Source of the DNA: Bacteroidales bacterium M7
GTDB lineage: Bacteria > Bacteroidota > Bacteroidia > Bacteroidales > Muribaculaceae
Direction of reading: 5' to 3'
DNA length: 64,000 nucleotides
NCBI GenBank assembly: GCA_001689515.1
Contig: LUJR01000039.1
Span: forward strand, 83,544 to 147,543
The first letter of the stretch is position 1; each line of letters begins with the position of its first letter. Positions 30,644 through 64,000 of the stretch are shown here, one piece after another. The notes beneath the pieces were generated by a model. That model made no database searches. It was given only the letters and a program-made list of their open reading frames with translations, and was not told the origin of the DNA. The translations under genes and the position numbers were made by a program.

Positions 30644-30679
30644 CAACGGGCTGCTGCCGAATCTGGCAGCAGCCCGTTG
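30644..30679. terminator. Terminator-like 15-bp perfect hairpin after the GH31 gene
   Basis: caacgggctgctgcc / ggcagcagcccgttg with a 6-nt loop. The flanking U-tract is weak on the plus strand; on the minus strand it is followed by a T-rich run. Confidence 0.55.
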
Positions 30680-46763: not shown

Positions 46764-46851
<88 letters not shown>

Positions 46852-46993: not shown

Positions 46994-48184
46994 ATGTTGC
47001 CAGACAAGAACTCGCTCGCCCGCGTAATGGGCTACACGGTGCCGGTGCTCCACCGTGGCAAAACATGGTATGTGGATTTCTATGCCTTTGATCCTGCCAC
47101 AGGAGAGATGCGCCGCAAGAAGTACCACATAGACAGCATCAAGGGGATTACAGCCAAGAAACAGCGCGGTGCAGAGATATGCGCCGCGCTGATGCAGAAA
47201 CTCCGTGGCGGATGGAATCCGTGGGCACAGGAGGGTTGCAGCCGCAGCTATGCGCGGTTTGCCGATGTGGTAGACCGCTACCTCCAGTCTATTGAGAAGA
47301 CTTCACGCCGCAAAACCTACCTGTCATATTCATCACGCGCCAACATGCTCATCCGCTACATTGAGACGATGACCGTCCCGATCATGTATGCCTACCAGTT
47401 TGACTCGGCTCTGATTGTGGATTTCTTGGACTGGCTCTACCTTGACCGCGAGGTGACGGCACGGACACGCAACAACTATCGCGGATGGTGCTCGTCACTC
47501 GGAGCATGGATGGCGCAGCGCAAATACGTACAGTCCAATCCCGCCGAGGGGATCGCCAACATATCCGAGACAGCCAAGATACGCACAGACCTCACCGCCG
47601 GGCAGCTTCGACAGATGAAGGATGAGCTTGAGGCTGACGAGCCCCACTACCTGCTGGCGTGTATGATGGAATACTACACCTTCATCCGCCCCACCGAGCT
47701 TAGCCACCTCAGAATCCAGGACATAGATGTGAAAAACATGCGCATATTCGTCCCTGCTGCCGTCAGCAAAAACAAGCGTGACGGATATGTGGCGATGAAC
47801 CGCATACTGCTCGGCTTGATGCTGCGCCTCAAGATATTCAGCCATCCGTCACACTATTATCTGTTTTCCGAAAATTTCCACCCCGGGGAGGTGCGGAGGG
47901 GTCCGGACGTGTTTAACAAACGCTGGAAGAAACTGCGCAAGGCTCTCAAGTGGCCCGACTCGCTGCAATTCTACTCGCTCAAGGACTCGGGCATACGCGA
48001 CCTTGCCAACGCCGAGGGCATAGTGACCGCCCGTGACCAGGCGCGGCATACCGACGTAGCCACCACAAACAAGTATCTCACCCACGGAGGCATCCACGTG
48101 CATCAGGAGGTCAAGGCATTTGAGGGGGCGTTTGGAGCAGAAGAAAGCCGGGAATCCTCACGGACACCCGGCTCGCCAATGTAA
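46994..48184 (+). CDS. Tyrosine-type site-specific integrase
   Basis: 396 aa with a C-terminal catalytic region (RPTEL, ARHTDVATTNKYLTH with the catalytic Tyr) and an N-terminal arm/SAM-like domain typical of Bacteroidales phage integrases. Confidence 0.9.
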   Translation: MLPDKNSLARVMGYTVPVLHRGKTWYVDFYAFDPATGEMRRKKYHIDSIKGITAKKQRGAEICAALMQKLRGGWNPWAQEGCSRSYARFADVVDRYLQSIEKTSRRKTYLSYSSRANMLIRYIETMTVPIMYAYQFDSALIVDFLDWLYLDREVTARTRNNYRGWCSSLGAWMAQRKYVQSNPAEGIANISETAKIRTDLTAGQLRQMKDELEADEPHYLLACMMEYYTFIRPTELSHLRIQDIDVKNMRIFVPAAVSKNKRDGYVAMNRILLGLMLRLKIFSHPSHYYLFSENFHPGEVRRGPDVFNKRWKKLRKALKWPDSLQFYSLKDSGIRDLANAEGIVTARDQARHTDVATTNKYLTHGGIHVHQEVKAFEGAFGAEESRESSRTPGSPM

Positions 48185-48203: not shown

Positions 48204-48413
48204 TTAGCTCTGGGGAGTGTCATCTACCAGTCGCGGACTCATGGCGATAATGAGATTTCCGAGAGTTGCGAGAGAGTCTTTCAGAGTTTCAAACCCGATC
48301 TCGTCCAATTCTTCCATCAAGTTGCAGTATAGATAGACAAGTGCTTCACGCACCTGTGCCGGCTCCATTGCGTGCTTCTCGAGGTCAATGACATTGTCGT
48401 ATTCGGCTCTCAT
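48204..48413 (-). CDS. Acidic 69-aa protein, paralog of the 71-aa protein at 62602-62817
   Basis: The ATG at 48413 overlaps the upstream stop (ATGA). AAAGGAGG lies 6 nt upstream. 15 of 39 residues are identical to the 71-aa protein in an ungapped core, aligned by eye. Confidence 0.7.
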   Translation of the reverse strand: MRAEYDNVIDLEKHAMEPAQVREALVYLYCNLMEELDEIGFETLKDSLATLGNLIIAMSPRLVDDTPQS

Positions 48414-48631
48414 AGCTTGCCTCCTTTCGCGCTGTCGGCGGGTTCGGGGATGTGGATGGTGACCGTGCCGCCGTAGATGTTGAAGATGATGTGGCCGTCG
48501 GCGCGTACCGTCGTTGCCACCGTGTCCATTTCCTCGCGGATGGTCTCGCCCAGCTCTATCATCAGGGCTGCCACCTTCGCCGAGGAACAGGAGCGCGTAC
48601 GCTCCGCTGCGTTGTTGTTTGTGTCTTGCAT
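48410..48631 (-). CDS. Hypothetical 73-aa protein (first gene of cassette Y)
   Basis: The ATG lies 2 nt after the conserved leader hairpin. Translationally coupled to the 69-aa gene. No homology was recognised. Confidence 0.6.
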   Translation of the reverse strand: MQDTNNNAAERTRSCSSAKVAALMIELGETIREEMDTVATTVRADGHIIFNIYGGTVTIHIPEPADSAKGGKL

Positions 48632-48777
48632 ATCGCTTGAGTGTTTGGCTTATAGACAGAAAAACGGCTGTCATATCCCGTTCGCCAAAACACTCAAGCG
48701 TCGCTCCGTGGAGCAAGTATTGATTGGATATAACAGCCGTATTGGCTTGTATGTAATCAGGGCATAAAAATAGCCCG
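48632..48777 (-). promoter_or_regulatory. Structured leader element, copy Y
   Basis: Contains the 14-mer CGGGCTATTTTTAT and an ACGGCTGT segment. The stem pairs 48634-48649 with 48684-48700. The loop motif is conserved relative to copy X at 63847-63989. Confidence 0.6.
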
Positions 48778-48849
48778 AAACATTGGATGTCCGAGCAATT
48801 GACCGATGCCCGACGGAAGCGTTAGACGCTCAGAGTATTTTGGCAATGG

Positions 48850-48879
48850 CAAAAGTAATGGAAATATTTGAGAAGCAAA
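48850..48879 (-). promoter_or_regulatory. Candidate promoter for cassette Y (-7 TACTTTTG, -33 TTTG)
   Basis: The reverse complement of 48850-48857 is TACTTTTG. TTTG (reverse complement of 48876-48879) lies 18 nt upstream of it. Confidence 0.5.
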
Positions 48880-48918
48880 ATATTTTTATTGATTTTAACA
48901 AAATAATTGCATGAATAT

Positions 48919-48949
48919 TTTGTGGATAATGATTTTATTCGTATCTTTG
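48919..48949 (+). promoter_or_regulatory. Candidate divergent promoter (-33 TTTG, -7 TATCTTTG)
   Basis: TTTG at 48919-48922 and TATCTTTG at 48942-48949, with 19-nt spacing, 46 nt upstream of the ATG at 48995. Confidence 0.5.
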
Positions 48950-48994
48950 TAGTGTAAGAAATCACTAACCCATTAAAGCAGAAAGGAGGTAAAT

Positions 48995-49120
48995 ATGAGA
49001 GACAGAATTAGAACGGTGGTTGCACTGATAGGACGATACTTGGACATAATCGAGACCCAGCGCAACCACCGTGTAGTAGCCGAAATCAGAGGCTTGCTAA
49101 ATGAGTTGCTTAATCTTTAA
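48995..49120 (+). CDS. Possible 41-aa peptide (MRDRIRTVVALIGRYLDIIETQRNHRVVAEIRGLLNELLNL)
   Basis: Below the ORF-track length cutoff. Perfect AAAGGAGG 5 nt upstream of the ATG. Followed by an 8-bp GC hairpin (49126-49148). Confidence 0.45.
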   Translation: MRDRIRTVVALIGRYLDIIETQRNHRVVAEIRGLLNELLNL

Positions 49121-49170
49121 CAAAAGCCCCCGGGTGACAGCCGGGGGCAAATTTACCAAATATATCCGAT

Positions 49171-49503
49171 ATGTACTTAGGAACACGCGAAATTTACGAT
49201 GCAGAGGGCAGCGAAGCCCGCAGAAAAGAATTGATCGCCACAAAGTGGGGCGCAGTTTCAAATGCCTTCATTGAGCTTGAGGGTTTGATCAACAAGACAC
49301 AGCTCGCCGATCAGTATTTCAACAAAAGCCAGGCGTGGCTCTCTCAGAGACTAAATGCCTGCATCTCACATAACAAAAAGACGACATTCACCAAGGAGCA
49401 GTATCACCAGTTGGCGGAAGCTTTCCGCCACATAGCAAAGCGTCTTGAGGCACATGCCGACGAGATAGACGCGGCAGCCCCCGACGGCTCAACAGACGAC
49501 TGA
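49171..49503 (+). CDS. Small phage protein, possibly DNA-binding (DUF5053-like, tentative)
   Basis: 110-aa ORF. The segment TQLADQYFNKSQAWLSQRLN resembles an HTH. The family name is from memory only. Confidence 0.6.
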   Translation: MYLGTREIYDAEGSEARRKELIATKWGAVSNAFIELEGLINKTQLADQYFNKSQAWLSQRLNACISHNKKTTFTKEQYHQLAEAFRHIAKRLEAHADEIDAAAPDGSTDD

Positions 49504-49573: not shown

Positions 49574-49807
49574 TCATTCCGCCATTTCGGGCACTGCTGC
49601 CATATGTTCCGCTTCGGCGGCGAGGCGTTGCTGCTCCAGCCAGTCGGCGACGGCTGCATCGGTGACCTCGGAATAGTTGTCGGGCGAGTCGCCCTTGCCG
49701 AGGTAGGCGGTGGAGGTGGCTGTGGAAAGGTCGCCGTCGTAGACGATTTTATGTCCGGAGTCGGCAGTGAGCTTGCACATGCTGTTGGGAGTGATTGTCT
49801 GCTGCAT
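49574..49807 (-). CDS. Hypothetical 77-aa phage protein
   Basis: ORF directly downstream of the fibre-like gene on the same strand. No homology was recognised. Confidence 0.5.
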   Translation of the reverse strand: MQQTITPNSMCKLTADSGHKIVYDGDLSTATSTAYLGKGDSPDNYSEVTDAAVADWLEQQRLAAEAEHMAAVPEMAE

Positions 49808-49828
49808 GATGTGTATGGGGTTAAGGGG

Positions 49829-51766
49829 TTATGACAATGTATAGTTTTTGGCGGTGGCTACGGCTATCTCGTCCTCGGTTAGCTGGGCGAGGTTGTCCGC
49901 GCCCATCTGTAGGCGGAGAGTAGTACTCCCCGTGTTGTCGCCGAGGTTGGCTATGAGATTGCGGAGATTGTCAACCGAGAGCACTGAGCTTTTGAAGTCG
50001 ATGCTGCCGGTGAAGCCTGGCTCGATGGTTATGGCTGTAACTGCGGTGCTATTGAGGTAAAATGAGACACCAATCTGAGCCCCGAAATGCAATCTCACGT
50101 CCTTATTGGGCCAGTTAAGTCCAGTAGAGAAAGTAACTACCTTTGGAAGATACACATCTATGTTGGTTGCATTTCGCAGCAAACCGCCGTTGCCCGATAT
50201 GGTAACTGCTGACGGAAGCCTTAATTCACGGAGATTAGGCATGTTCATCGTGAAAAAGCCGTTACCAAAGAATATTGTTTCTACCGAGGGCAAGGTCAGG
50301 CTTTCGATTTTAGGCAGTTTGAAACTTATGCTGCTAATCCACAACGCTTTGAGTTTTGGGAGCGACAAATAGACCAGATTTTCAAGCAGTCCAAACACAT
50401 CTGCCGCCGGTGCTTCCACCAGGACAGGAAGCGAGAGCCGCTTCAAGGCTGGGCAAGCAGCCGCTATAACGCCGGTGGCAGACTCGAGACTCGGGAGGGA
50501 CAACTCAGACAGAAGAGGCAGATTTGATGCAATTGCCCCAGAGGCTCGTTTCAGTTCCAGCAGTGTCAACTGCCGGAGAGTTGCACAGTTGGATGCTATA
50601 GCACGTCTGCATGACTCGAGGTCGGGCATCTCCAGCACCTGTACGTTTCCGCCCGACACTATGGCAGATCCCGACGGCAGCTCCGATACGCCTCCAATGA
50701 CCACGGACGCACCGTATGCGCCTACGGAGAAGTCGTGACCGTCATAGCTGGCGGGGGCAGAGTCGATGAACAGGTTGACGAACGGACGCGCTGTGGAGGC
50801 GGAGAACGTGGGATGTGAGCCGAGACAGGCTATGTCAAGCACCTCCACGCCATCGGGCCACGGCATCGCAAAGAAGTCCTCACGGAAGTAGCATACTGCG
50901 TAGTGGGCGGCTTCGCCGTCGGTGAACGTATGCTCCGCGCCGCTTTCGGCGATCCATGTGCCGTCAGACAGCACACAGGCATCGGCAGCCCCGAGCTTCA
51001 CGGTGTCGCCTGTGAACGAGAAGCCTATGCAGTGGGGATAGTCGGCGCGGCGGTGTCGGTTGACCTCAGCGACCATGTCGTAGCGCGAATAAGCACCCCT
51101 CGCGGTCACATGCTCACGCGCTCCGACAGCGGTATCCGGGATCTGGTAGAGCGTCCTGACTGACTGCGCCATCTCCGCCATGGGCGCATCCGCTGCGGTG
51201 GGTATGCCCTGATCGGTGAGGGCTTGGGCTATCTCGCGCTTGCCCTGTCGGAGATCGCTGATGGTGGCAGCCAGATCAGGCAGCATACCTACGGAAGTCA
51301 TATATTCCTCCCGTGTGCCTTGGTAACCCACATGCACTGCCATGTCATAGGCATCAAGGAGTGCATAGGGCGCAAGCATCTCCATCACCGCACCGTCAGG
51401 AAGCGGCATGTAAGTGCCGCCCTCTGCCACAAGTTCCAAAGGAAGCTCAAGGCTGACATCGCATCTGCGCCTCCCCGTCTCAAACAGCTCGGAGGGCACA
51501 TATGCCGACAGCCGCAGACGAAGCTGACCCGGTGCGAGTCCGTGAGCCTCATGGAACAGACGCAGACCGCCGTCAACTTCGCAACAGTTGACGCATGCGC
51601 CGTCCACACGGCTCGAGACACACGCCCGCGCCTCGCTTTCGGTCCATATCCGGACGTGGATGTCCCCTATCATCGGCAATATGTTCCCGTCCCTGTCAGT
51701 CAGCTTGACAATGAAATCAAGGTCGGAGCGATAGTTTATGTGCGTTATTTTATCTTTTTGTGTCAT
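49829..51766 (-). CDS. Tail fibre / receptor-binding candidate with C-terminal BspA-type leucine-rich repeats
   Basis: 645 aa. The C-terminal ~280 aa show repeated L.L..L......I....F..C..L patterns (for example LRQLTLLELKRASGAIASNLPLLSELSLPSLESATGVIAAACPALKRLSLP). It is the last large gene of the tail module. Confidence 0.65.
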   Translation of the reverse strand: MTQKDKITHINYRSDLDFIVKLTDRDGNILPMIGDIHVRIWTESEARACVSSRVDGACVNCCEVDGGLRLFHEAHGLAPGQLRLRLSAYVPSELFETGRRRCDVSLELPLELVAEGGTYMPLPDGAVMEMLAPYALLDAYDMAVHVGYQGTREEYMTSVGMLPDLAATISDLRQGKREIAQALTDQGIPTAADAPMAEMAQSVRTLYQIPDTAVGAREHVTARGAYSRYDMVAEVNRHRRADYPHCIGFSFTGDTVKLGAADACVLSDGTWIAESGAEHTFTDGEAAHYAVCYFREDFFAMPWPDGVEVLDIACLGSHPTFSASTARPFVNLFIDSAPASYDGHDFSVGAYGASVVIGGVSELPSGSAIVSGGNVQVLEMPDLESCRRAIASNCATLRQLTLLELKRASGAIASNLPLLSELSLPSLESATGVIAAACPALKRLSLPVLVEAPAADVFGLLENLVYLSLPKLKALWISSISFKLPKIESLTLPSVETIFFGNGFFTMNMPNLRELRLPSAVTISGNGGLLRNATNIDVYLPKVVTFSTGLNWPNKDVRLHFGAQIGVSFYLNSTAVTAITIEPGFTGSIDFKSSVLSVDNLRNLIANLGDNTGSTTLRLQMGADNLAQLTEDEIAVATAKNYTLS

Positions 51767-51883
51767 AAAATCGGCATATATGATTGTTGTTTAGAGAATT
51801 ATGCGTATATTTGTATCTGAAGATCGTCCGCAGCCGATTCCGATTGCTATTGCTATCGTGAGAGCTGGCGGACGATTCTGATT

Positions 51884-53473
51884 TTATACGAGGGGAACAA
51901 GACCGAGACCACGTTTGTAGCTGAAATACAGCCAATCAGATTTGACCGCACCATGTACATAGAGCGGAGCAACGCGCCTCACTCTGAATACGCCGCAGCG
52001 CGGAGCGATGAAAAGCGCGGCACCTCCTATCGGCTGACGTTTAATTTTTGGATGGTATTTTTTCCATACCGATTTGCGCCGTGCATATTTTATCCTCTTT
52101 CCGTCAACGCCACGAGGCGCGTTGCCGCCGCTACGCTTGTTGACCCTTTTGCGCACCTGTATCTCCACATGCTTGTCTTTGACAAGCTCCTCAAGGCGGA
52201 AACGCCCTGAATCTGTGTTACTCTCCGGGACTGACAGCCTCCTATGAGGCTGTTGCATTGTTTTGTTGAAGCTGTTGGCAAAACTAAGCCTCCCATCGTG
52301 GTCTATATAGACATATTGCGGATATTCCTCACCATCATCCGGGATGGGCATGGGAAGATATAAACGAGGATGCCACTCTTTACCAACCATAGAGGAGGTA
52401 CATTGTGACAGGTCAAACCTGATAACATCCTGATCAAACACTCCGATAGTGCCAATTCCACCAGTGCTGAAATCGTCATCATTGGGAACCTGGAACTTAT
52501 CAAACAGACGTGAAATCTTTGTATCAACAGCTTGCCCGAAACTATGCGGCACACGGATCTCGGCGCAATAGCGGTCTCCCCCATAAATATCCGACTTGCG
52601 ATAGCGGCATTTATAAACCACCCCGGGACGCGATCCAAGACTGATGGTGCCACGCTGTATGTCGGGACGGATATACGAAGTCAACCTGTCGGTCTCGTGC
52701 GCCACATAATCTGCCATACGCTGCGCCTCATTTGCCGCATCATAGGCTTCCTGTGCCTTGGTCTGATTACCTATCTCGACAAGCTCCGATGATTCCGCGT
52801 CATAGCGGTAGAGATGTCCGTCACAACGAAACACCCTACCGGTCAAAGGTCGGAGCGGAGTGCCTATGTCATCAGTCTCATTATATCCATTGGTAGGCTC
52901 AGCCCTGCCTCCGCCCATGGATGTGTAAAACAGACGGTGGACGGTATCGAATACGATGCTTCCGCTCTTCACGCCAGCAAAAGCCCCCGAAGTGACATCG
53001 CCGAAAAATGTATCAAACGGTAATATGCCGATATCTCCTCTCAGATTGTCAACAGCATTTTCTATCAAACTGCCTACAGACGAATAATCCGGGCATTTAG
53101 CGATACGGCTGTTAAGCTCGGCAAGCATAGCCATCAGAGTCGCATCATCCTTAATGCCTGAGAGAAATGCAAACAGTTCCTTAAGATTGTCGATGCTGTC
53201 CGACAGGTCTCCGGTGCGTATAGCGTTGCACACTGACTCCAAGGCTGCCACACGGTTTCCGAGTGCCGACAATGTAGCCTTGGCATCCTCCACTCCTGAT
53301 GAGCCTGATTTAACCTTTTCATTGAGCCAGCGGAGCACGGTAGCCACTATGACATTAGTAATCTGACCTTTGGCTGTGGCATTTTCCACCTGCTGTATCA
53401 GGGTGTCAATGCGCGCCTGATCTGTGGTGAAATTTGAAAGTAAAGTATCCATATCAATTAAATTTTTCGTCAA
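51884..53473 (-). CDS. Tail fibre / baseplate-associated structural protein
   Basis: 529 aa with an N-terminal coiled-coil-like region. Its position in the tail module supports the call. No motif was recognised. Confidence 0.6.
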   Translation of the reverse strand: MTKNLIDMDTLLSNFTTDQARIDTLIQQVENATAKGQITNVIVATVLRWLNEKVKSGSSGVEDAKATLSALGNRVAALESVCNAIRTGDLSDSIDNLKELFAFLSGIKDDATLMAMLAELNSRIAKCPDYSSVGSLIENAVDNLRGDIGILPFDTFFGDVTSGAFAGVKSGSIVFDTVHRLFYTSMGGGRAEPTNGYNETDDIGTPLRPLTGRVFRCDGHLYRYDAESSELVEIGNQTKAQEAYDAANEAQRMADYVAHETDRLTSYIRPDIQRGTISLGSRPGVVYKCRYRKSDIYGGDRYCAEIRVPHSFGQAVDTKISRLFDKFQVPNDDDFSTGGIGTIGVFDQDVIRFDLSQCTSSMVGKEWHPRLYLPMPIPDDGEEYPQYVYIDHDGRLSFANSFNKTMQQPHRRLSVPESNTDSGRFRLEELVKDKHVEIQVRKRVNKRSGGNAPRGVDGKRIKYARRKSVWKKYHPKIKRQPIGGAALFIAPRCGVFRVRRVAPLYVHGAVKSDWLYFSYKRGLGLVPLV

Positions 53474-54638
53474 ATTCGTCCGAGAAAAGCCGTGGGGGCA
53501 ATCCTGTCTCTCCGTCTGCCATCGGAGGCAGCATTGCCATCTCCGATGCGCTGACTCTGAATGTCAACGTGAAGCTCTGAGGAGCATTGCCGTTGAGCGA
53601 TATATCCAGTTCGTCAGCCCCGGGGACAGCCTTGACCAGCGACGGTCCCAGCCCGTACAGATCCACAGATGAAGCCCCGAGCATGTCAAGCAGCAGCGGC
53701 AGCCGCCCGGCGGGTATCGGATCTGTCTCTATAGTGATCGTCGCCGACATGGCTGCCCGGTTACGCACCCGCTCGAAGTCTGCCACTGCTGCATCCCAGC
53801 GCATAAAGGCGCCATCGGTATCGTCGCTGTCATCATCTCCAAACGCCGGTGTACACGATATTTTGCCTGAAAGGCATATCACTTCCGGGACTTCAAAGGA
53901 GTTAAGGAAGCGGGCTGACAATTTATATCTGTACGATTTCGGGCATCCCTCGGTGATAATGATCCGGGCAACCGTCTTATCATTCAGCGTCATCTCATAG
54001 AGGTTAGACAGCGCATAATGGTTGTCAAAAATCTCCCGTCGGGCAGCATCGACATCAAGCGCATAGATTCCCCTGGTGTCAATCTCAGTCTCCATGACCG
54101 CGCCATATAGCAATTCGCGGAGCTTCAGACGGGCTGGACTGTCAGAGGTGGCATCAGGTACACAGAAATACAACGGCATCAGTTCGTCCTCGGGTATCTT
54201 GAGCAGCCATCCGTTAGATCGCGTTGTCAGGAAAGGTGCGCTTATCCCTATCAGCGGCACCGGGCGTGAGGCACGGAGATGTTGCTTAGACATCCGCCCT
54301 GGGAGGGCATACGCCGTCATGGTGTCATAACCAGACGGGGACACATCTACCTGATATGAGGTAAATGTAAGCTGCGTGCCAGCACCCGGCACCACCGTTT
54401 TCAGCCATCCGTCACCATCGGGTGCAGGATACGGCGGTATGAAATCCGACACCACATCCGACACATCGACTTCCACGGTCTGCCCGTCATCAAGGCTCAC
54501 CTTGCCTGTATAAATGTCGTTGTGTTCCAGGAGCACGGAATACTCGCAGACGGCAGGGAATCCGCCGTTGTTAGTGCATTTAAGCAACATCGGATTGCCA
54601 GCCAGCACTACAGGTGAGTCATCAGGGCTGAATTTCAT
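53454..54638 (-). CDS. Phage structural (baseplate-like) protein
   Basis: 394-aa ORF overlapping both neighbours (ATGA at 54635-54638). Confidence 0.6.
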   Translation of the reverse strand: MKFSPDDSPVVLAGNPMLLKCTNNGGFPAVCEYSVLLEHNDIYTGKVSLDDGQTVEVDVSDVVSDFIPPYPAPDGDGWLKTVVPGAGTQLTFTSYQVDVSPSGYDTMTAYALPGRMSKQHLRASRPVPLIGISAPFLTTRSNGWLLKIPEDELMPLYFCVPDATSDSPARLKLRELLYGAVMETEIDTRGIYALDVDAARREIFDNHYALSNLYEMTLNDKTVARIIITEGCPKSYRYKLSARFLNSFEVPEVICLSGKISCTPAFGDDDSDDTDGAFMRWDAAVADFERVRNRAAMSATITIETDPIPAGRLPLLLDMLGASSVDLYGLGPSLVKAVPGADELDISLNGNAPQSFTLTFRVSASEMAMLPPMADGETGLPPRLFSDEFDEKFN

Positions 54639-54859
54639 AGCACTATGGTTATGGCATTGACATCCCCGTAACGCGCCGTGCGCTTGCCAGCCATCGCCAG
54701 CAGCCGCTCGCGCTCGGGAGACGGGGTGGTGATAAATCGGTAAAAATCGCTGTTGCAGCCCATGAAATGCTCACGCCACAGGTCACGCAGAGACATTGTG
54801 GTATCTTCATCCGGAAGCATCGGGGCGGTATTCAAAGCTGTACTATCCATATGCCACAA
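54635..54859 (-). CDS. Hypothetical 74-aa phage protein
   Basis: Small ORF coupled by an ATGA overlap to the downstream gene. Confidence 0.5.
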   Translation of the reverse strand: MWHMDSTALNTAPMLPDEDTTMSLRDLWREHFMGCNSDFYRFITTPSPERERLLAMAGKRTARYGDVNAITIVL

Positions 54860-54892
54860 AAGTAATAGCTCGCATCAATCTGTCATAGGACA

Positions 54893-57349
54893 TCACGACT
54901 GCTTGTAACGTGCCTTGAGTTCCACTGTATATTTCGCGATGATTTTGACATCTCCGAGATGCTCCTGAAGCTCCGGGGGATTAACGCGGTCAGGATCCAT
55001 GTAATACTCTCCGATATGGTAGCCGATCCATACGCGGTATTTGTCGCGCTTGGTTTGCGATATGCCCTCAGGAGCGACGAGCGATGTGTCCGTCTCCCAA
55101 GTAGGCTCCATCTTCGCATGCCAGTAGTAATCGGCACGGACATCGGTATCATACGGCGGCACATAATCGGGATTGCGCTCCTTCCAGGATTTCACAGCAG
55201 CGTCACGGCAGACCTGTGATTGTATGACCGTATCGATGTCATCGCGGTAGAAGTACCACACAAGCTCACGCCCTCCGGGCTCGAACGTCGGGACACCCTG
55301 CTCAGCCACGATGTCATACGTGCCCAGCGGGGTCAACGACCGCATGGTCATATCCACGACATCAACCGGCATCAGAGGCAGCGAGTATGTAAACGTGTCG
55401 GGGATGCACTTCAACCCCCTCACGGTGACAGGATCAAACGGATGCACCTCCGGCAGCTGTGACGGACTGAAGCTGACTGGCAGCTCCACTGTCCGCGCCC
55501 CATGGCGGAGCAGCTCGTCATACTGCCGCCAGTAGCGGTCAAACAGTCCGCCCTTGAACTGGAACAGCAGCGACAACCGATGCTCCTTGCCTCCGAACCT
55601 GATGCGCTTGCCGTCAACTGTCTCGGGACAGAACATCCCTACTGTACCGCTGCGTCCAAGATACACGGCATCATGATTGTCAGGATTGGTAAAGGCAAAC
55701 ATAAACGCCAGCGGTGTCTCTGTGACATCTTCATCTTCCGAACCTTTGATGTAAGTGTGGAAGTGCCTGGAGCCAGCGAGATACATGGGAGCATATCCGA
55801 GAAAAGAAGCCATATGGGCTTCTCCTGAGAAACTATAGCGGACAAGCTCTATCGGCACACACTCGTCATCACCCGACAGCTCCAACGCTTCCATGCCCGA
55901 TGGTGACGGATCCCAGTTGAAGAAGCTCGTTGAACTTTCCACCGGCTGTCCGTTGTCACGGTCAAGTTTATGCCACATACATGTCCCCACCTCGTATGCC
56001 AGGATGTTACGCTCCTTGCGTGTAGCCCCTGACGATGCTTTGGCGGCGGTTCTCCCGGCTTCACCGCGGTCATCCCCACGGTCATCAACTTCATCATCCC
56101 AGTCTCCGCGCGGATCATCCCACGGGTCATCAGGCTCGGGCCAGTCTCCCGGGTCATCAGGATCCACCTCCGGGTCATCCTCATATGTGGGCCACTCGGA
56201 GTCAAAATCGCCGGTATCGGCGTTGAGCTTCCACTTGACGATCTCACGTCCATAATACAGACCGTCAAGCGTCAGTCCCTTCATGAAGTCCTCAAACCGT
56301 TCGCATGCCGGGGCTGCTCCCTCAAGACTCGTCTTGGCAGAGAGTTTCAGATAGCGCGGTTCCTCGAAATTGACCATAGGATAATTAGCCATCCTGTCAC
56401 CCCACTCTGCCACAGGAGCTTTGGCAAGTATTTCGCTCAGAAGCTCAAGGCGCACAGTCCGCGCATCAGAGTCAACGGCATAGACCAGACCGAAGCGCAC
56501 CCACAGGGCGTTAAGAAACTGCGTGACGGTCACATCCGGCAGCAGTTCCTTGTAACGGATAGTTGAAGTGACGAGCGCATCGGCGGCATTGTTGAGCACT
56601 ACTAAGCGCGAAAGTTCAAGTGATTCTTTAAAAGGGTTACTTGAAAGCTCCACCCCTAAATCTGCAAATATCAGCTCTATAACGCGCCATACCCTTACGA
56701 ACGGAGAAAGACCGTAGTTTGTAGGCACATTGACCTCGGTGTATTCATTGCCTATCATGCGCCACACTTTCTGAGGCTGCTGCATTGACTCAAGATGCGG
56801 GGCATTGAGCATCTCGTAGGCATAGTGTACCTGACCGAATTCGTCCTCGCTGACCTTGGGCGCGGCAAGCACCACCGGAAACACCGCCAGATCCTCATAT
56901 TCGCCATGCCTGTAATCGCCGGCATAGATACGTGTCATGGTTTCATGCACCACATCTTCCCTTATGTCCCGGTCATACAGCTTTATCTCTGGGAGACCTG
57001 ACAGGTCGGACAGCTTGCGGTTTTGCCACGCCTCGTAAGCCACGGAGTTGTCAAAACCTATATTGAGGGTTATACCCTCCTTGACTGAGGCGGAGACTAT
57101 GTTGACCGTGCCGGAGCGAGCCAGTGCGCCGCTGATGACCATGCACTTCCGCGCCTCCTGGCGCGGGTCGGCGCAGGCATCAAGGCGCGTGGGGAAGCCG
57201 AGCAGACGGAGATTGCGCGGAGTGGCTGGCACAGTCGCAGGGAGTGACTGTGTGCCTGTCTCGTTGAATATCGGATTTGTGACCTCCATATCGAGAGTGA
57301 ACGCAGCAGGGAGGTCAAGAGCTTCGTTGTTGATTTCTATACGTACCAT
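54893..57349 (-). CDS. Large distal-tail / baseplate protein with an acidic Asp-Pro-rich insert
   Basis: 818 aa, immediately downstream of the tape measure gene, which is the usual position of distal tail or tail-associated proteins. The acidic insert spans about aa 381-430. Confidence 0.65.
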   Translation of the reverse strand: MVRIEINNEALDLPAAFTLDMEVTNPIFNETGTQSLPATVPATPRNLRLLGFPTRLDACADPRQEARKCMVISGALARSGTVNIVSASVKEGITLNIGFDNSVAYEAWQNRKLSDLSGLPEIKLYDRDIREDVVHETMTRIYAGDYRHGEYEDLAVFPVVLAAPKVSEDEFGQVHYAYEMLNAPHLESMQQPQKVWRMIGNEYTEVNVPTNYGLSPFVRVWRVIELIFADLGVELSSNPFKESLELSRLVVLNNAADALVTSTIRYKELLPDVTVTQFLNALWVRFGLVYAVDSDARTVRLELLSEILAKAPVAEWGDRMANYPMVNFEEPRYLKLSAKTSLEGAAPACERFEDFMKGLTLDGLYYGREIVKWKLNADTGDFDSEWPTYEDDPEVDPDDPGDWPEPDDPWDDPRGDWDDEVDDRGDDRGEAGRTAAKASSGATRKERNILAYEVGTCMWHKLDRDNGQPVESSTSFFNWDPSPSGMEALELSGDDECVPIELVRYSFSGEAHMASFLGYAPMYLAGSRHFHTYIKGSEDEDVTETPLAFMFAFTNPDNHDAVYLGRSGTVGMFCPETVDGKRIRFGGKEHRLSLLFQFKGGLFDRYWRQYDELLRHGARTVELPVSFSPSQLPEVHPFDPVTVRGLKCIPDTFTYSLPLMPVDVVDMTMRSLTPLGTYDIVAEQGVPTFEPGGRELVWYFYRDDIDTVIQSQVCRDAAVKSWKERNPDYVPPYDTDVRADYYWHAKMEPTWETDTSLVAPEGISQTKRDKYRVWIGYHIGEYYMDPDRVNPPELQEHLGDVKIIAKYTVELKARYKQS

Positions 57350-57361
57350 GGTGATAAGTCA

Positions 57362-60300
57362 TCATTTTCTGGTGAACGGACTGCGGGCTTTGTCAAGCGT
57401 GGATCCGGCGCGCTGGATGTCTTTGTAGACCACGTAAGCCCGCATCTTGCGCATGGATCTGACTGTGGAGCGGAGGTCGGTCAGCGTGTCGCGCAGGGCT
57501 GCGACTTCCTCTGTCGACACGCTGGCAGCTGTGGGTGATGATGTAAATCCGCCATCGGCATATCCCTGATGGGCGGAGACAGCCGGAGCAAGACGGTTAC
57601 GGCGTATAGACTCTATGGTGCCCACGGCATCCACCACATATGGGTGTGTCATTATAGGCTTGGGGATTACATACTCGCCGCGGTGCACCACTCCGGCTAC
57701 CTCGTAGCGTCCGCCGTTGCCGGTGTAACCGCCATCGGAGTAGCCGGTAAGCTGACGAGTGACGGCGGGTGTGGATGTGTCGGACTTCTTCGCCGTGCGC
57801 TTAGGCTGTAGGTTCTTGATGCGCTCACGCTCGGCATTGGCTGTGGCTACCTGTATCGCACCTGTGGCTGCAATCAATGCTATTGCCGGGGCAGCAAATG
57901 CACCCAGCTGCGAGTATGCGGTCATAATCGCTACCGCCGTGTTGGCTATGATTTCGGCGACCTTGACGGCGAAATTAGCATCGGCATATTTCTTCTGAAT
58001 ATCCAGCTTGGCATTCTCCTTCTCCTCCTCGAGGGCGGCGGTGTCCTGACCGTTGTTTTCAGCCTGACGGATCAATTCGTCATACTTGGCATCGGAGGCG
58101 GCGATTTCATACTCCTGCATCGCCCCTACGGTGCTGGCGGCGAGGCTTTGGAAATAGGAGTAGTATTTCATCGCGTTTTTCATCTGGAGCTGGAGCTTCT
58201 TCTGCTGATACTGCTTTTCTTTCAGGAGACCTTGGGCGTGCTGCTGGTCAAGCAGAGCCATCTCGGCGGCGTATTCGTCAGCCCATGAGCCTGACACCTG
58301 AGCCTGGTGGTCGGTAAGCTGCACGAGTCTCTCGGCATCGAGCTGCGCCAGTGCGCGGTTCTTGGCTTCCTGAAGGGCTATGGTCTGGTCGGCGGTGAGC
58401 CCTTCCTGAGCGAGCATGCCGTCATACATGGCGATTACGGCAGCGCGGCGCACGTCCCACTGCTGCTCCATCGACTCCACGCTGTGGTCGTTGGCTATCA
58501 GTTCGCGGTACTTCGCCATGAAGTTGCCTGTGTCGGTCAGTATCTCGTTCTGCTTCGTCCGGATGGCTGCTGCCACCTTCGCCTCCGCCTTCTCGCGGTC
58601 ATCAGCAGACTCGTAAGTAAGCCCCTTGACCGTCTTGAGATAGCTTTGCAGCTCGGCAAGTTCCTGAGCATGGGCTTGCTTGCGGTAGACCATCAGCTCC
58701 ATGTCGGCGACCTCCTGGGTCTTGGTGCCGTCGATGACTGCCTGCTGCTGGGTACGCTCCTTCTCCTTGAGGTTGTCAGCAAACTGGGTCATGCGCTCCT
58801 CATGCCCCTTCTGTTCCTCGGCGATGATTGACTTGTTGATTTCGCCCTGTGCCTTGGTCAGAGTGCCTTTCCAGAGTATCAGCTGCATGTCTATCTCGTC
58901 AAGGGTCTGGTCATGCGACTCACTGGTAGATTCTCGCAGCTTTTTCAGAGCATCGATGGTCTCTTGGGCATAACGTTTCGTTTCCTCGGCAGTGGCGAGG
59001 GCATATGCGCCGGCTGTCATGGACGGTTTCTTATCGTCAATCTTCTGTTGACGCTCAAGGTGCTCGTTCTTGATGGGCGCGGTGACCTTCTTTAGCGAGT
59101 CATCCTGATACGTGCCCGGAGTATGCTTCTCAGCCTGAGTGCCGAGAAGTTCCTTCCTCTGGTTTTGCAGCTCCTTGAGTCTGGCAGACAGAGCCTTTAT
59201 GTCGGTGCCGGGCTTGGCATCCTTGAGCTGCTTCTGCAAGCCCTTGATCTCCGTGTTGAGCTTCTTGAGCTTGGTAGCGGCATCATCGGCAGTATTAGCT
59301 ACGACACCGAGCGGTTTACCCAAATCATTCTCGACATCAAATTTTGAAGTGTCAATATCACCATACATTTTCTCTAATTGGTCATTGACAGGTTTAATAG
59401 CCTCATAATTTGTTTTCTTCTCGTTATATGGGGCAATAAGTGATCGCAATTCGTCTCTCATAGCGTCACGTTCAGACTTCAATTGCTCGATGACAGGATC
59501 CAAATCTCTACGACCGAAGCTATGATCCCTCTTCCATTCGTATTCAGAAATTTGCAGGTTCTTCTTCTTTATTTGATCCTGCAAGTCTGTTATTTTATCA
59601 TATTCCAATCCCAGTTCGATTCCAAGTCTGAGCATCTCTTTTTCATTTTCCTTCATCAACTCCTGTGCTGCTTTGGCTTTGGCAACTTCACGGATGTTTT
59701 TAGCAAGACGGGCATACTGAATGCACGCCTTACCTACCATGATTTCTTCCGTTGACATATTGGCAAAATATGCGGGGTATAGACGTTGCAATTCTTTTGC
59801 CGCTGCTATACGCCTATTTGTAGATTTATACTGATTGGTCGCGGCATTGTAGAGCTTGTCAAGATTGGCAAGCTCCTCAGTAGCATATTTTTTTGTCCCG
59901 GCACTTAGATCGCTGATGCTTTTGCGGAACTCTTCAGTTCGTTTCTTAGCTTCTTCAAGTTTTTGTGCCGATTCATCAGCCTTGTCACCGAACAGGTCAA
60001 ATGCCACGATGACAGCCGAGATGACCGAGAGCAGCAACCCGAGAGGATTCAGTTTTACTATCAGGTTAAAAGCTCTCATACATGCTCCAGCTCTCGTCAC
60101 ATTTGTAGCAAACAGGGCTTTGGCGGCATTGACGAGCAGCAATAAACCCTTGTAAGCGGTCAGGAGTACGGATTGCCCTTTGATGGCTGCTGTCTCAAGC
60201 AATGTGGCTTTGGTGGAGCGTGTGATCCACAGGTAATAGGCTTTTTTCACCACGGTGGTCAGTATCAGACCTGCGCGGTAAGCAGCCCATGCGCCGGCTG

Positions 60301-61780
60301 CTGTGATAATCAGCCCTGACATGCGGCCTATAAGCTCTATCAGAGTGCCTATCCATGACACCACTGCCGACATGGCATCAATAATGGCTTTAAGCGGTCC
60401 CTTTGCCTCGTAGAATTTCAGCACAACACCCTCCACGGTCGACTCCAATATAGCCAATGCGCCTGACACATTGTCGCCCATCTCCTCGCTCATGGCGTTA
60501 AACTGGTCGGTACAGCCGGAGACCGAGGCTTGCAGATTGGTCAGCGTGTCGGCATTGGCGAGGAAGCTTGAGAAAGCGGAGACGGAGCGTTTGTCGGTAA
60601 GCTCGAGCACGGCATTAAGGTCTATCCCCTCGGCGGTGAGTTTCTTGAGACCTGCCACTAAGTCACCGAGGTTGGTAACAGGCTGCCCGATAGCCTGAGC
60701 CAGCTTGCCGTTGCTGTCGGCAAGATTGAGCAGTATGTTGCGAGTGGCAGTGGCTGCCGTGGAGGCATCAAAACCGGCATTGGCGAGCGCACCGAGCAGA
60801 GCGGTCGTTTCTTCCACGGTGAAACCAAACGAGGCAGCCACAGGACCCACGGTACTCATAGCGTTCTGCAAGAAACTGAAATCAAGTGCGCTCTTGGTTG
60901 TGCCTATAGCCAGCGTGGCAAGCATCTCGTCAACCTCCGAGGCTTCTTTGCCGAATATGCGCATGGATGCTCCGGCAAAAGCGGCAGCCGAGCCGAGATC
61001 CGTGTCTACAGCCTTGGCGAATTTCAGCACCGCCGGAGTCATGTCTTTAATTTGGTCCTTGGCAAAACCGAGTTTGGCAAGCTCTATCTGAAGGCTCGTC
61101 ACCTGGGCAGCCGTGTATGATGTCGTAGCACCGAGCCTACGCGCTTCATCGGTCAGATCCTTAATATCCTTCTTGGTAGAACCCAGCACAGCAGCCAGCT
61201 TACTGTTGGCTTTCTCAAACTCTATGATGGTCGATATGGCTTGACGGAAACCGTTGACCACATAGCTCAATAAGAAAGCACCAATGGCGTATAAGGCACC
61301 TTTGACGATTTCCTCTACCTTGGAGAAACCAAGGAAGCTACGCTTAGTCTTTTCGCTCTCTCCTGTCATCTGAGACATCGCAGTTTTGGTCTCGTCGATG
61401 CGGCGGCGCAGGTCTGCAAACCGTTCGGGCTCCGTTGCCTTGGATGTATTGTTGAGTTCGCTTCTTAACTCCTTGAGACGCTTGTTGAGCTGGGCGATTG
61501 TCAGGACTGACGGATCAATGGTCTGTCGGATAGCTCTCATCTTGGAATCATTTTCCGACAGTCGGGCATTAATGCCTTTCAGCTCTTTTTGAAGGTCAAC
61601 ATACGATTTCGAACCCTTGAGATTGGCTTTCTCAAGCTCAAGCAGAGATTTTTTCAATTCCCTTTGACGGGAGGTAAGTTCACGGCTGGACTTCTCCAGC
61701 TTGTGCATTTCCCTCTGAGCTTCAGAGGTATTGAGCGATATCGCCCATTTGATATGGTCTTCGCTGATTTTCCTTGCCAT
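57362..61780 (-). CDS. Phage tail tape measure protein
   Basis: 1472 aa from the ATG at 61780 (MARKISEDH). It has a TP901-type TMP core (LGATTSYTAAQVTSLQIELAKLGF ... ALLGALANAGFDASTAATATRNILLNL), hydrophobic segments and long coiled coils. The track's TTG start at 61810 lies inside a hairpin. Confidence 0.9.
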   Translation of the reverse strand: MARKISEDHIKWAISLNTSEAQREMHKLEKSSRELTSRQRELKKSLLELEKANLKGSKSYVDLQKELKGINARLSENDSKMRAIRQTIDPSVLTIAQLNKRLKELRSELNNTSKATEPERFADLRRRIDETKTAMSQMTGESEKTKRSFLGFSKVEEIVKGALYAIGAFLLSYVVNGFRQAISTIIEFEKANSKLAAVLGSTKKDIKDLTDEARRLGATTSYTAAQVTSLQIELAKLGFAKDQIKDMTPAVLKFAKAVDTDLGSAAAFAGASMRIFGKEASEVDEMLATLAIGTTKSALDFSFLQNAMSTVGPVAASFGFTVEETTALLGALANAGFDASTAATATRNILLNLADSNGKLAQAIGQPVTNLGDLVAGLKKLTAEGIDLNAVLELTDKRSVSAFSSFLANADTLTNLQASVSGCTDQFNAMSEEMGDNVSGALAILESTVEGVVLKFYEAKGPLKAIIDAMSAVVSWIGTLIELIGRMSGLIITAAGAWAAYRAGLILTTVVKKAYYLWITRSTKATLLETAAIKGQSVLLTAYKGLLLLVNAAKALFATNVTRAGACMRAFNLIVKLNPLGLLLSVISAVIVAFDLFGDKADESAQKLEEAKKRTEEFRKSISDLSAGTKKYATEELANLDKLYNAATNQYKSTNRRIAAAKELQRLYPAYFANMSTEEIMVGKACIQYARLAKNIREVAKAKAAQELMKENEKEMLRLGIELGLEYDKITDLQDQIKKKNLQISEYEWKRDHSFGRRDLDPVIEQLKSERDAMRDELRSLIAPYNEKKTNYEAIKPVNDQLEKMYGDIDTSKFDVENDLGKPLGVVANTADDAATKLKKLNTEIKGLQKQLKDAKPGTDIKALSARLKELQNQRKELLGTQAEKHTPGTYQDDSLKKVTAPIKNEHLERQQKIDDKKPSMTAGAYALATAEETKRYAQETIDALKKLRESTSESHDQTLDEIDMQLILWKGTLTKAQGEINKSIIAEEQKGHEERMTQFADNLKEKERTQQQAVIDGTKTQEVADMELMVYRKQAHAQELAELQSYLKTVKGLTYESADDREKAEAKVAAAIRTKQNEILTDTGNFMAKYRELIANDHSVESMEQQWDVRRAAVIAMYDGMLAQEGLTADQTIALQEAKNRALAQLDAERLVQLTDHQAQVSGSWADEYAAEMALLDQQHAQGLLKEKQYQQKKLQLQMKNAMKYYSYFQSLAASTVGAMQEYEIAASDAKYDELIRQAENNGQDTAALEEEKENAKLDIQKKYADANFAVKVAEIIANTAVAIMTAYSQLGAFAAPAIALIAATGAIQVATANAERERIKNLQPKRTAKKSDTSTPAVTRQLTGYSDGGYTGNGGRYEVAGVVHRGEYVIPKPIMTHPYVVDAVGTIESIRRNRLAPAVSAHQGYADGGFTSSPTAASVSTEEVAALRDTLTDLRSTVRSMRKMRAYVVYKDIQRAGSTLDKARSPFTRK

Positions 61781-61782
61781 AG

Positions 61783-61822
61783 AAAAAGGTAGATTTGCGT
61801 TTTGTGGCAAATCTACCTTTTC
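61783..61822 (-). terminator. Strong hairpin plus T5 ending 2 nt before the tape measure ATG
   Basis: Perfect 15-bp stem pairing 61784-61798 with 61807-61821, and an 8-nt loop. On the minus strand it is followed by TTTTT then CT then ATG. Confidence 0.6.
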
Positions 61823-61843
61823 AATATCTGGTTTTAAAGGACG

Positions 61844-62476
61844 TTAACCGCCGCCAATTCCACCGCCGATTCCTGAACCAATCCCTATACCAGGCACCCA
61901 GGCTCCACCAGTGTCCTTCGGCATCGGCTTATTGAACTCGTAGCCATCACAAAGCCCCTCTTTATAACCGTCCCTCCGACCAGCTTTGTAACCTTTCTTG
62001 TAGGCATCAAAGTAGTCATCAGGCAGATTGTCGGGAAATTCAGTACCGACAATCTCAAGGCGTAACCGCTCTATTTCGCTGTCTATTTTCTCAGCACTCA
62101 TGCCGTCTCCGAGCAGAAATGTGTCATCTGCTTTCTCTCGCCCCTTATCGTAGCCGTCATCGTAGCCTTCGTCATAGCCACTCTTATAGCCACTTTCTTC
62201 CTCGGTATGCTCGTCATCGCGGTCCCAGTAGGGTATCTCCGGGGGTGTGGGCTTGTCTGCCGGGATGTCAAACGTGGCTTTGCGTCCAGAGGGCGTAAAG
62301 ATGCACCAATAGAGCCAAAACAGAGCCATATAGCAGCCGAAAGCCGCGCCGCAGAGCTTCACGCCCTGCCACAGACCGTCATGTGCCAGCCCGTACCAGA
62401 TGCAGCCGCCGAACACCGCGCACCACACATAGGGCATCCACCATACGCCTCCGTCGTTTTTCTTCTTACGTGCCAT
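61844..62476 (-). CDS. Membrane protein with Gly/Tyr-rich repeats
   Basis: 210 aa from the ATG at 62476 (MARKKKNDGG). Two TM helices, GY(K/D).GY repeats, and a C-terminal GIGIGSGIGGGIGGG. Confidence 0.6.
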   Translation of the reverse strand: MARKKKNDGGVWWMPYVWCAVFGGCIWYGLAHDGLWQGVKLCGAAFGCYMALFWLYWCIFTPSGRKATFDIPADKPTPPEIPYWDRDDEHTEEESGYKSGYDEGYDDGYDKGREKADDTFLLGDGMSAEKIDSEIERLRLEIVGTEFPDNLPDDYFDAYKKGYKAGRRDGYKEGLCDGYEFNKPMPKDTGGAWVPGIGIGSGIGGGIGGG

Positions 62477-62534
62477 AGCTGTTAACCGTTTTCTCAAATA
62501 TAGCGAAAATAATTGTCTTTTCCAAGCAAAAGCC

Positions 62535-62601
62535 GGGGAATCCTCACGGACTCCCCTCTTTGGCTCAAACGAAAATGTAAAAAAAATGTATGTTGTATGT
62601 C
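62535..62601 (-). terminator. Conserved 3' UTR plus terminator hairpin of cassette X
   Basis: Minus strand, after the stop at 62602: acatacaacatacattttttttacatt, then the hairpin GGGGA.TCC gtga GGA.TCCCC (62535-62556), then GGCTTTTGC. Homologous to 48148-48203. Confidence 0.55.
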
Positions 62602-62817
62602 TTATTGGATGTCTGGCTCTATGAAACCTTCGGGGTCAGCATCGCGTAGTGCCTTGATCAGCTCACCCGTAATGGCAAGCTCCATGCGGATACGTTCAAA
62701 TTCTTCGGGCTCCACGTTGTCGATACAGGAGCAATATACCGTCATCAACGCTTCGCGTGTCTGCATGCGTGTATATCCGCTGCGGACAGTAATGGAGTGG
62801 TCGGTGCTGTGGGTCAT
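62602..62817 (-). CDS. Acidic 71-aa protein, paralog of the 69-aa protein at 48204-48413
   Basis: The ATG overlaps the HNH stop (ATGA). AAAGGAGG lies 6 nt upstream. By my count it has 14 acidic and 7 basic residues. Confidence 0.7.
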   Translation of the reverse strand: MTHSTDHSITVRSGYTRMQTREALMTVYCSCIDNVEPEEFERIRMELAITGELIKALRDADPEGFIEPDIQ

Positions 62818-63122: not shown

Positions 63123-63139
63123 CACTTGCCTCCTTTCAT

Positions 63140-63989: not shown

Positions 63990-64000
63990 CATATGATACC

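Follow-up and report, generated by a model that had tools for sequence, protein, structure and literature searches.

Several described systems set the expression of a gene through pairings in the 5' leader of its messenger RNA (mRNA). In translational riboswitch platforms of the thiM type (Shine-Dalgarno, anti-Shine-Dalgarno and anti-anti-Shine-Dalgarno), a complement of the start region pairs either with the start or with an upstream strand that closes a domain. In the late leader of lambdoid phages, transcripts from PR' end as 6S RNA at tR' or, with Q, read through into the late operon, and in the hok mRNA and the leader of the MS2 maturation gene long-range pairings of the extreme 5' end set the accessibility of the start. 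HK022 put is a structured phage RNA just past operon promoters, and leaders processed by RNase III, such as the lambda N leader and the T7 early mRNA sites, carry long, near-perfect duplexes. Here we describe a leader element that occurs twice in a 64,000-nucleotide (nt) stretch from Bacteroidales bacterium M7, a member of the Muribaculaceae (GenBank assembly GCA_001689515.1, contig LUJR01000039.1, positions 83,544 to 147,543; hereafter the window). Its two copies, Y (48629-48857) and X (63844-64000 and beyond), both lie on the minus strand in a prophage, and X is cut by the window end. The element is an apparently undescribed RNA family that reuses known regulatory principles, namely attenuation and a contest among three strands over the start region. 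What sets its layout apart is the copy of the start region at the 5' end, together with three long helices that seem to exclude one another.

Like the thiM-type platforms, the leader contains a complement of the start region with two possible partners, but it uses no Shine-Dalgarno sequence, no ligand or aptamer was identified, its helices are 15-22 base pairs (bp) long and hypervariable, its upstream competitor is the extreme 5' end of the transcript, and an intrinsic terminator lies inside the domain. With the lambdoid late leader it shares a constitutive-looking promoter, a terminator within about 100 nt and a long late operon. It differs in that no Q-like protein or binding site was identified here, there are 2-4 copies per phage, small cassettes and Rha/antirepressor-like genes are headed by it as well, and a putative RNA switch at the start codon is added. 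The part played by the 5' end recalls hok and MS2, and local hairpins like the one we call P1L may be kinetic traps. However, the 5'-end pairing of hok belongs to the silencing fold, with activation needing 3' processing and an antisense RNA, and the upstream pairing of MS2 sequesters the start, whereas in the leader the 5' end would free the start region; moreover, no antisense RNA was seen for the leader, and the genes downstream of it are varied. As with put, more than one copy stands in a genome and structure has been kept while sequence diverged, but put is about 65-70 nt long, with two stem-loops and neither internal terminator nor start-codon helix, as opposed to about 215 nt and three long-range helices. 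The RNase III-processed leaders share the long duplexes beside the start codon of a phage mRNA; in the present leader, where cleavage is hypothetical, the duplex partner would alternate between two copies of one sequence. Temperate phages of gut Bacteroidales are abundant and their gene regulation is essentially obscure, and translation initiation in Bacteroidetes is unusual.

Anatomy and distribution of the leader

A preliminary description, made from the letters of the window, had aligned Y and X module by module and proposed a transcribed cis-regulatory leader with pairings beside the start codon that exclude one another, a proposal that the sequence comparisons below continue to favour. 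All of the items it listed are present where it placed them. The 14-mer CGGGCTATTTTTAT has exactly two matches on the minus strand (48777-48764 and 63989-63976; chance expectation 0.32), and the loop motif CAGCCGTTTYTTTGTCT occurs only at the Y and X sites (chance expectation 0.28). The long stem of Y pairs CGCTTGAGTGTTTTGGC (48700-48684) with GCCAAACACTCAAGCG (48649-48634), that of X pairs 63915-63898 with 63865-63848 over 17-18 perfect pairs, and in both copies the 3' arm ends 1-2 nt before the ATG (48631-48629 in Y, 63846-63844 in X). The pseudoknot-type pairing of the loop with an upstream box, previously put at 8-10 nt, extends over 14-15 bp, in Y joining ACGGCTGTTATATCC to GGATATGACAGCCGT. 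Against shuffled sequences, the region as then drawn folds with z-scores of -5.4 (Y) and -6.5 (X). It comprises the 3' two-thirds of the element, which starts about 70 nt upstream of the 14-mer; a third copy of the arm, an internal terminator and the size of the family had been missed.

The complete unit spans approximately 215 nt and runs in the order promoter, b'', P1L, P2, T1, a, H1, b, a', L3, b', ATG, with an optional hairpin, H2, between L3 and b' in class A relatives only. The Y promoter (48850-48879, minus strand, as are all Y and X parts) consists of a -33 TTTG (48879-48876), an 18-nt spacer and the -7 box TACTTTTG (48857-48850), a perfect match to the Bacteroidetes consensus. The TAnnTTTG box, earlier proposed as a candidate, recurs in almost every relative whose sequence reaches far enough upstream, at 156-190 nt before the loop motif. 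Arm b'' (GCCAAAATACTCTGAGCG, 48827-48844) nearly duplicates b', is complementary to b and stands where the transcript is predicted to begin; across the family its pairing starts 2-4 nt past the -7 box. In X, b'' (GCTAACCAAATTGAC) matches the first 15 nt of b' exactly. This arm and the X promoter lie beyond the window end and are visible at 9455-9480 of L134, an identical metagenome contig (it encodes an identical 124-amino-acid (aa) protein) that extends X past the window end and carries, farther upstream, a lysozyme gene and other phage genes that are conserved.

The 3' part of b'' can also pair with the segment that follows it, forming hairpin P1L (48817-48831; GAGCGU-CUA-ACGCUU). Hairpin P2 (48793-48811; GGGCA/UGCUC), which appears with covariation in the RNAalifold consensus, overlaps through its 3' strand the 5' strand of the putative terminator T1 (48764-48796; stem 48796-48790 with 48779-48773, U tract 48772-48764). 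The 14-mer is the 3' strand of T1 together with the U tract, and the terminator thus explains it. Next come box a (ACGGCTGTTATATCC, 48726-48740), the 5' strand of the long-range helix a:a'; the small hairpin H1 (48701-48716), with a UUCG-type tetraloop in most relatives; arm b (48684-48700), which is complementary to the start region and has b'' or b' as its partner; and, directly 3' of b, box a' (48664-48678), the other strand of a:a'. The pyrimidine-rich tract L3 (UUUUCUGUCUAUAA, 48650-48663), for which a local pairing with a' (GACAG/CUGUC) is possible, leads to the A-rich arm b' just upstream of the start, which is followed by AT and the ATG of a 73-aa open reading frame (ORF). The corresponding parts of X, besides b and b', are the T1 3' strand and U tract at 63989-63976, a at 63954-63940, a' at 63895-63881 and L3 at 63880-63866.

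Y and X are no chance pair, and belong to a family with well over 100 distinct instances. Scanning IMG/VR with the loop motif returned 62 viral loci, all with the common module order, and in nearly all of these contigs the 3' arm ends 0-7 nt from the ATG. The loop pattern matched about 45 loci when applied to contigs of one genome per species. The convincing matches (short spacer, a box present, strong model score) are all from Bacteroidales, comprising Prevotellaceae, Muribaculaceae, Porphyromonadaceae/Barnesiella, Bacteroidaceae, Sangeribacter and Duncaniella, with the sole exception of a 2.3-kb contig binned as Lachnospiraceae (L099) that is probably a binning error. Up to four copies are found per contig, as in DAAQ01000004.1. 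A covariance model of the a...a' core, R1, the kind of search that the preliminary description had called for, recovered only X and Y in the window and one extra copy in locus L025. In 69 loci retrieved by way of an unrelated protein encoded downstream, of a 355-aa family that occurs in at least 468 viral contigs, it found 50 further, more divergent copies, all upstream of and on the same strand as the gene of that family. A weak R1 match on the minus strand in the host part of the window (30637-30677; 41 nt, 17 bits, E 0.025) is probably due to chance. We discarded the only match of the viral scan with the 14-mer and an ACGGCTG box (L001) as a chance ordinary terminator, and treated as chance the long-spacer matches of the loop pattern in Nonomuraea, Bacillus and other non-Bacteroidales, in which the a box is missing or model scores are weak.

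The element had not been recognized as a known family, and database comparisons agree. At gathering thresholds, the 4227 covariance models of Rfam 15 matched only the serine transfer RNA (tRNA-Ser) in the window and only a tRNA in four related loci, and in an E-value scan of 48500-49000 the best matches, rnk_leader (21.5 bits against a threshold of 50) and mir-223, were at chance level. Among INPHARED phage records, the leader was found in no cultured phage. Literature on the motif strings and on leader or antitermination RNAs of Bacteroides phages yielded nothing relevant, an earlier description in one 2026 preprint on the mining of non-coding elements not being excluded; the FopS small RNAs concern polysaccharide-utilization loci and are unrelated.

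Covariation of the helices and the acting strand

From 78 unique full leaders we retained 36 non-redundant ones (<70% identity in b) and compared, in a permutation test, the duplex that each b forms with its own partner and with those of other leaders. The own b:b' duplex averaged -27.9 kcal/mol against -13.7 kcal/mol for crossed partners and was the best in 33/36 leaders; for b'':b the values were -29.7 and -11.6 kcal/mol, with the own partner best in 34/36. Relatives have thus kept the complementarity of the stem that had been called covarying from two copies. In an alignment built in register, and therefore fitted to the stem, the 12 loop-proximal pairs of b:b' had 97.9% of cells paired versus 48.8% after shuffling, double changes at 12/12 pairs and a covariation score of 1.167 versus 0.204. 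A MAFFT/RNAalifold alignment of b...b' missed the long stem, as the hypervariable arms were not put in register. The mean duplex lengths of the long helices are 19.7-22.1 bp.

Helix a:a' likewise covaries: in about 50 different versions of its sequence, its stability is kept at -20 to -30 kcal/mol. Its proximal 8 bp, which include the seemingly invariant CGGCUG/CAGCCG, are paired in 100% of cells, and 4/8 of these pairs show compensatory changes once divergent subfamilies are considered (covariation score 0.367 versus 0.136). The local hairpins follow suit: compensatory changes affect 5/5 pairs of P1L (90.7% of cells paired) and 3/7 pairs of the T1 stem (86% paired). Strong sequence conservation is found in the core helix CGGCUG/CAGCCG, in the P2 loop (YCGGUYAAU in class B) and in AUGCC after T1, and the segment between b'' and a differs greatly among subfamilies. 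In one subfamily (L169, L155 and L202; for example, L169 2002-2120), the tract after a' is not U-rich and holds a second box a (UCGGCUGCA); with this second copy, a' has two alternative partners, mirroring the b''/b/b' arrangement.

These helices appear to act as RNA. Across the three long helices, we counted 123 G.U pairs and only 8 A.C appositions, and the sense duplex is more stable than the antisense one in 27, 30 and 29 of the 36 leaders (Wilcoxon p 5e-4, 1e-4 and 4e-4, respectively). The greater stability of each helix on the sense strand indicates RNA of the coding strand, in line with the earlier preference for RNA over DNA operators; the position between promoter and start codon, the coding strand, the covariation and the strand bias are those of a structured cis-regulatory mRNA leader. 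A feature of the DNA itself, with the repeats serving as cassette- or att-like recombination sites, operators or cruciforms, is something we consider very improbable. It would account for the direct repeats b''...b' that flank the leader with the inverted copy b between them, and tandem units of leader and small ORF do exist, one copy of which (in L161) is recombinant. However, toleration of G.U but not A.C, the greater stability of the sense strand, and the orientation and spacing relative to promoter and ATG, which are fixed in the family, argue against operators or recombination sites. The local tetraloop hairpins also covary, and arm sequences differ between the copies of one phage, so that no single DNA-binding protein could read them. 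By its strand bias and fixed position, the element does not fit an integron attC-like or other recombination site, and the only recombinase nearby is the tyrosine integrase of the prophage, beside tRNA-Ser.

A proposed combination of premature termination and a three-strand switch

In 33/33 non-redundant leaders, a hairpin (mean -7.1 kcal/mol) directly precedes the U tract at T1, the 10 nt after it containing 6-9 T; in the family the T1 3' strand is GGGC, followed by 6-9 U. The leader therefore carries, upstream of its ORF, a predicted intrinsic terminator of the kind that an attenuator needs, and P2 shares a strand with T1 in all classes. In X, a terminator scan flagged a further terminator-like site at a'/L3. 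A U-rich tract also comes after a:a' in most subfamilies, as plain UUUUUU in the L157 group, and this arrangement resembles a second terminator. Other readings of the region were discarded: short ORFs across T1, as leader-peptide attenuation would require, are not conserved between the copies; the GCTC that together with GGGCATTTTTTATGCCC suggested boxA/boxB (nut-like) elements is a helix strand of P2/T1; and a complementarity between the P2 loop and L3, judged by eye, is not conserved between classes.

We reasoned that each copy is a cis-acting 5' leader RNA of about 215 nt, belonging to a phage transcription unit, that combines premature termination with a three-strand translational switch, and we put the probability of this reading at about 0.6. 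The consensus promoter would fire, and the first transcribed nucleotides, b'', would repeat the A-rich b' before the start codon. T1, about 60-90 nt after the start, should end most transcripts, so that downstream expression would need read-through. In the read-through RNA, pairing of b with b'' would leave the start region single-stranded and the first gene translatable, whereas pairing of b with b' would produce a 16-20-bp helix that ends 0-7 nt from the ATG, or over it, and blocks initiation. Translation initiation in Bacteroidetes proceeds largely without Shine-Dalgarno pairing and favours unstructured, A-rich leaders; for this reason, initiation is expected to fail when a helix runs up to the ATG, and to become possible again once b'' has captured b. 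Helix a:a' (13-17 bp, then a U/C-rich tract) crosses both b helices and would make the leader a multi-state device, probably with a second termination point. Helices longer than about one turn need threading on a tethered chain, and on this ground the three long helices are likely alternatives during transcription. As a trigger we would guess at a phage or host (antitermination) factor, a protein that recognizes the core, the kinetics of co-transcriptional folding or processing by an RNase. What we infer is termination at T1, alternation of the helices in vivo, a block of translation by b:b' and the identity of whatever flips the switch.

The predicted folds contain a start-covering b:b' helix and, in b'', an exclusive alternative partner for b, as translational sequestration demands. 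In the minimum free energy (MFE) structure of the full Y leader, b is paired with the 5' end, and both b' and the ATG remain open; in locus L003, the MFE structure has b:b' and the centroid b'':b. Over the 36 leaders, the start-free and 5'-end-free states differ in constrained MFE by -1.3 +/- 6.9 kcal/mol, with a split of 23 versus 13, and the predicted ON (b'':b) and OFF (b:b') states thus appear near isoenergetic. Among the mechanisms put forward in the preliminary description, sequestration and attenuation are the two that the predicted anatomy favours; for a put-like role, the anatomy speaks neither way.

Several observations weigh against this combination of attenuator and switch. A simple terminator scan did not flag T1, because the T1 stems are bulged. 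In class B, a longer helix around P2 can also abut the U tract, so that P2 may coexist with the terminator helix, which weakens a neat antiterminator/terminator reading. As b'' is on the same molecule and made first, b'':b should usually win by simple kinetics, and a:a' could stack coaxially on either b helix, the mutual exclusivity being a topological argument only. In the second leader copy of L161, b fits its own b'' but b' is that of the neighbouring copy 1, a mismatch whose sequence suggests recombination within the conserved core. Finally, a compact relative of the leader upstream of X (described below) has no internal terminator, b', adjacent start codon or neighbouring ORF, a hint at some independent function of the core fold. 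A wider reading, possible but doubtful, takes the stretch of RNA between the transcription start and the pyrimidine tract as an autonomous, topologically unusual RNA device that gates both read-through into the late operon and translation, and that also exists in stand-alone, non-coding versions; the three helices may be unable to form together on the nascent chain, where only the free 5' end threads, and the RNA may sense its own 5'-end or termination state or some phage or host factor.

Alternatively, the main product could be a free-standing non-coding RNA with a function in trans (a protein sponge, an RNA polymerase binder or a base-pairing small RNA), either about 70-90 nt long and ending at T1 or about 190 nt long and ending at a:a' and the U tract, closed by b'':b, with the coupling of b' to the ORF secondary. 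T1 is universal and near a consensus promoter, most subfamilies have the U-rich tract after a:a', the flagged site at a'/L3 of X fits such an end, and the compact relative retains a closing helix, a:a' and a tail while lacking b' and an adjacent start codon. We nevertheless regard a free-standing RNA as unlikely, in either length, since the covariation of b:b' matches that of b'':b in strength and the b:b' helix always stops at the start codon, so that the read-through mRNA must matter; the b sequences are operon-specific, with no common trans target evident, and the L169/L155/L202 subfamily has no U tract after a'. Somewhat less credible still is a riboswitch-like or protein-sensing leader, in which the domain of about 150 nt closed by b'':b would be an aptamer whose binding of a metabolite, ion or protein turns translation on and perhaps also carries RNA polymerase past T1 and the a:a' site. 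The logic of start, complement and second complement in the closing helix is that of translational expression platforms such as thiM, the core, the P2 loop and the AUGCC are strongly conserved, and genes for DUF5053 proteins adjoin the leader in 20/89 loci, both window copies included. Against this, the closing helix is highly variable and, at 15-22 bp, far longer than ligand-sensitive P1 helices, few unpaired positions are conserved, part of that conservation having been imposed by the search pattern, and the subfamilies diverge greatly between b'' and a. The gene context suggests no ligand: downstream genes are phage structural genes or of no known function, and no metabolic theme was found among them.

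The length of the duplexes (averages of 19.7-22.1 bp) and the position at the head of long late operons would also suit an RNase III processing site or a processive-antitermination (put- or Q-like) module, the put-like element having been among the earlier proposals. In the former case, the long, perfect duplexes (b'':b, about 22 bp in length and able to stack on a:a') would be cleaved to mature the mRNA and switch it on or off, as happens in the leaders of E. coli phages; in the latter, the folded RNA would modify the polymerase for read-through of terminators in the roughly 14-kb tail operon, and the succession of promoter, short terminated RNA and late genes does resemble lambda PR'-tR'. 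We give either variant little credence, as we saw no gene resembling Q, N or NusG in the examined flanks, the element also heads two-gene cassettes such as Y, where processivity is unneeded, and T1 lies inside the element, unlike in put.

The attenuator with a three-strand switch, which we prefer, would offer a handle for mutagenesis, comprising a conserved promoter, a leader terminator and a covariation-supported three-strand switch at the start of the first gene, which recurs ahead of operons for structural, accessory and regulatory genes in hundreds of phage genomes, sampled from humans, mice and the rumen. Should the leader control late genes, it could explain how prophages stay silent and how induction is executed, and it could supply a modular RNA part for Bacteroides engineering whose variable arms are exchangeable while complementary. 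Were the autonomous device to be real, it would represent a new class of large regulatory RNA in a very abundant group of gut Bacteroidales phages.

Genomic setting and related elements

The window holds tRNA-Ser (anticodon TGA, 46764-46851) followed by the tyrosine integrase gene (46994-48184, plus strand), which together likely mark the attachment end of the prophage; its other genes are on the minus strand. Y heads a cassette of two ORFs of 73 and 69 aa (48204-48631, minus strand) that is convergent with the integrase gene and has no family match. X apparently heads the tape-measure/tail operon (49574-63846, minus strand), which encodes a 111-aa membrane protein, a 124-aa protein, an HNH endonuclease, proteins of 71 and 217 aa, the tape-measure protein (57362-61810) and tail proteins. 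We took these genes as a single operon because the intergenic gaps are small, and R1 found no further leader copy between X and the end of this string. The HNH gene (62814-63143, minus strand) stands just upstream of the tape-measure gene; phage HNH genes usually lie beside terminase genes, and this position is unusual. Past the end of the tail operon, a hairpin resembling a strong terminator (GCCCCCGGCTGTCACCCGGGGGC, then TTTTGTT; 49126-49148, minus strand) lies just upstream of a plus-strand DUF5053 gene (49171-49503) and may act in both directions.

A program-called ORF of 152 aa (63511-63969, minus strand) spans the terminator, a, b, a' and b' of the X leader, and gene calls of 198-207 aa in public assemblies (L134 9381-10004) cross it likewise. 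These calls are probably over-extended, the real start being the ATG at 63846, and recognition of the leader thus corrects annotations that run through the element.

Genes downstream of the leader vary among relatives. They encode small proteins that are hydrophobic at the C-terminus or membrane-bound, Rha/antirepressor-like proteins, tape-measure operons, or a 355-aa followed by 481-aa and DUF6712 proteins, and searches of PHROGs and Pfam assigned a function to none of the first downstream genes. Given this diversity, the leader is a generic operon head that is not tied to one gene family. DUF5053 genes adjoin both window copies (49171-49503 on the plus strand; L134 7159-7413 and 8722-9054), and the 20 related loci counted above have one within about 4 kb; DUF5053 could act in trans as a partner of the leader or could simply be linked to it as an accessory gene. 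A 544-aa protein is often encoded upstream of the leader and, as a guess by size and position, may be the large terminase subunit. By eye, about 20-26 loci (for example, L006, L128 and L072) have a likely HicA/HicB pair at a distance of 1-1.3 kb on the upstream side of the leader, and the phage in the window has a DUF4160/DUF2442 pair (L134 7629-8286) in place of these.

The compact relative upstream of X (L134 9222-9370, just past the window end; folding z-score -5.2) consists of a 5' arm GCAAACACTATTGAACAAATACGAA with the inverted arm TTCGTATTTGTTCGAGGTGTTTGC, an a-like ACGGCCGGCGGTATTCCG, an a'-like CGGAGTGCCGCCGGCCGT and then CUUUUUCC. On the minus strand at 48995-49072, about 120 nt upstream of the Y promoter, a 16-bp hairpin (ACGGUGGUUGCGCUGG ... 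CAGUGCAACCACCGU) is followed by UCUAAUUCUGUCUCUC (z-score -5.7). It resembles a:a' with its pyrimidine tract and could represent a relative that has degenerated or stands alone, or else a terminator. Together, this hairpin and the compact relative hint at stand-alone RNA versions.

In some loci, two or three units of leader and small ORF form tandem arrays about 400 nt apart (L161 1895-2788, L177 2207-2691 and L209 594-1084). Class A loci contain a conserved hairpin (CCCGAAAT...ATTTCGGG) with a T run that overlaps the -33 region of the promoter (L004 623-649, and the same position elsewhere), either the terminator of an upstream operon abutting the promoter or an operator.

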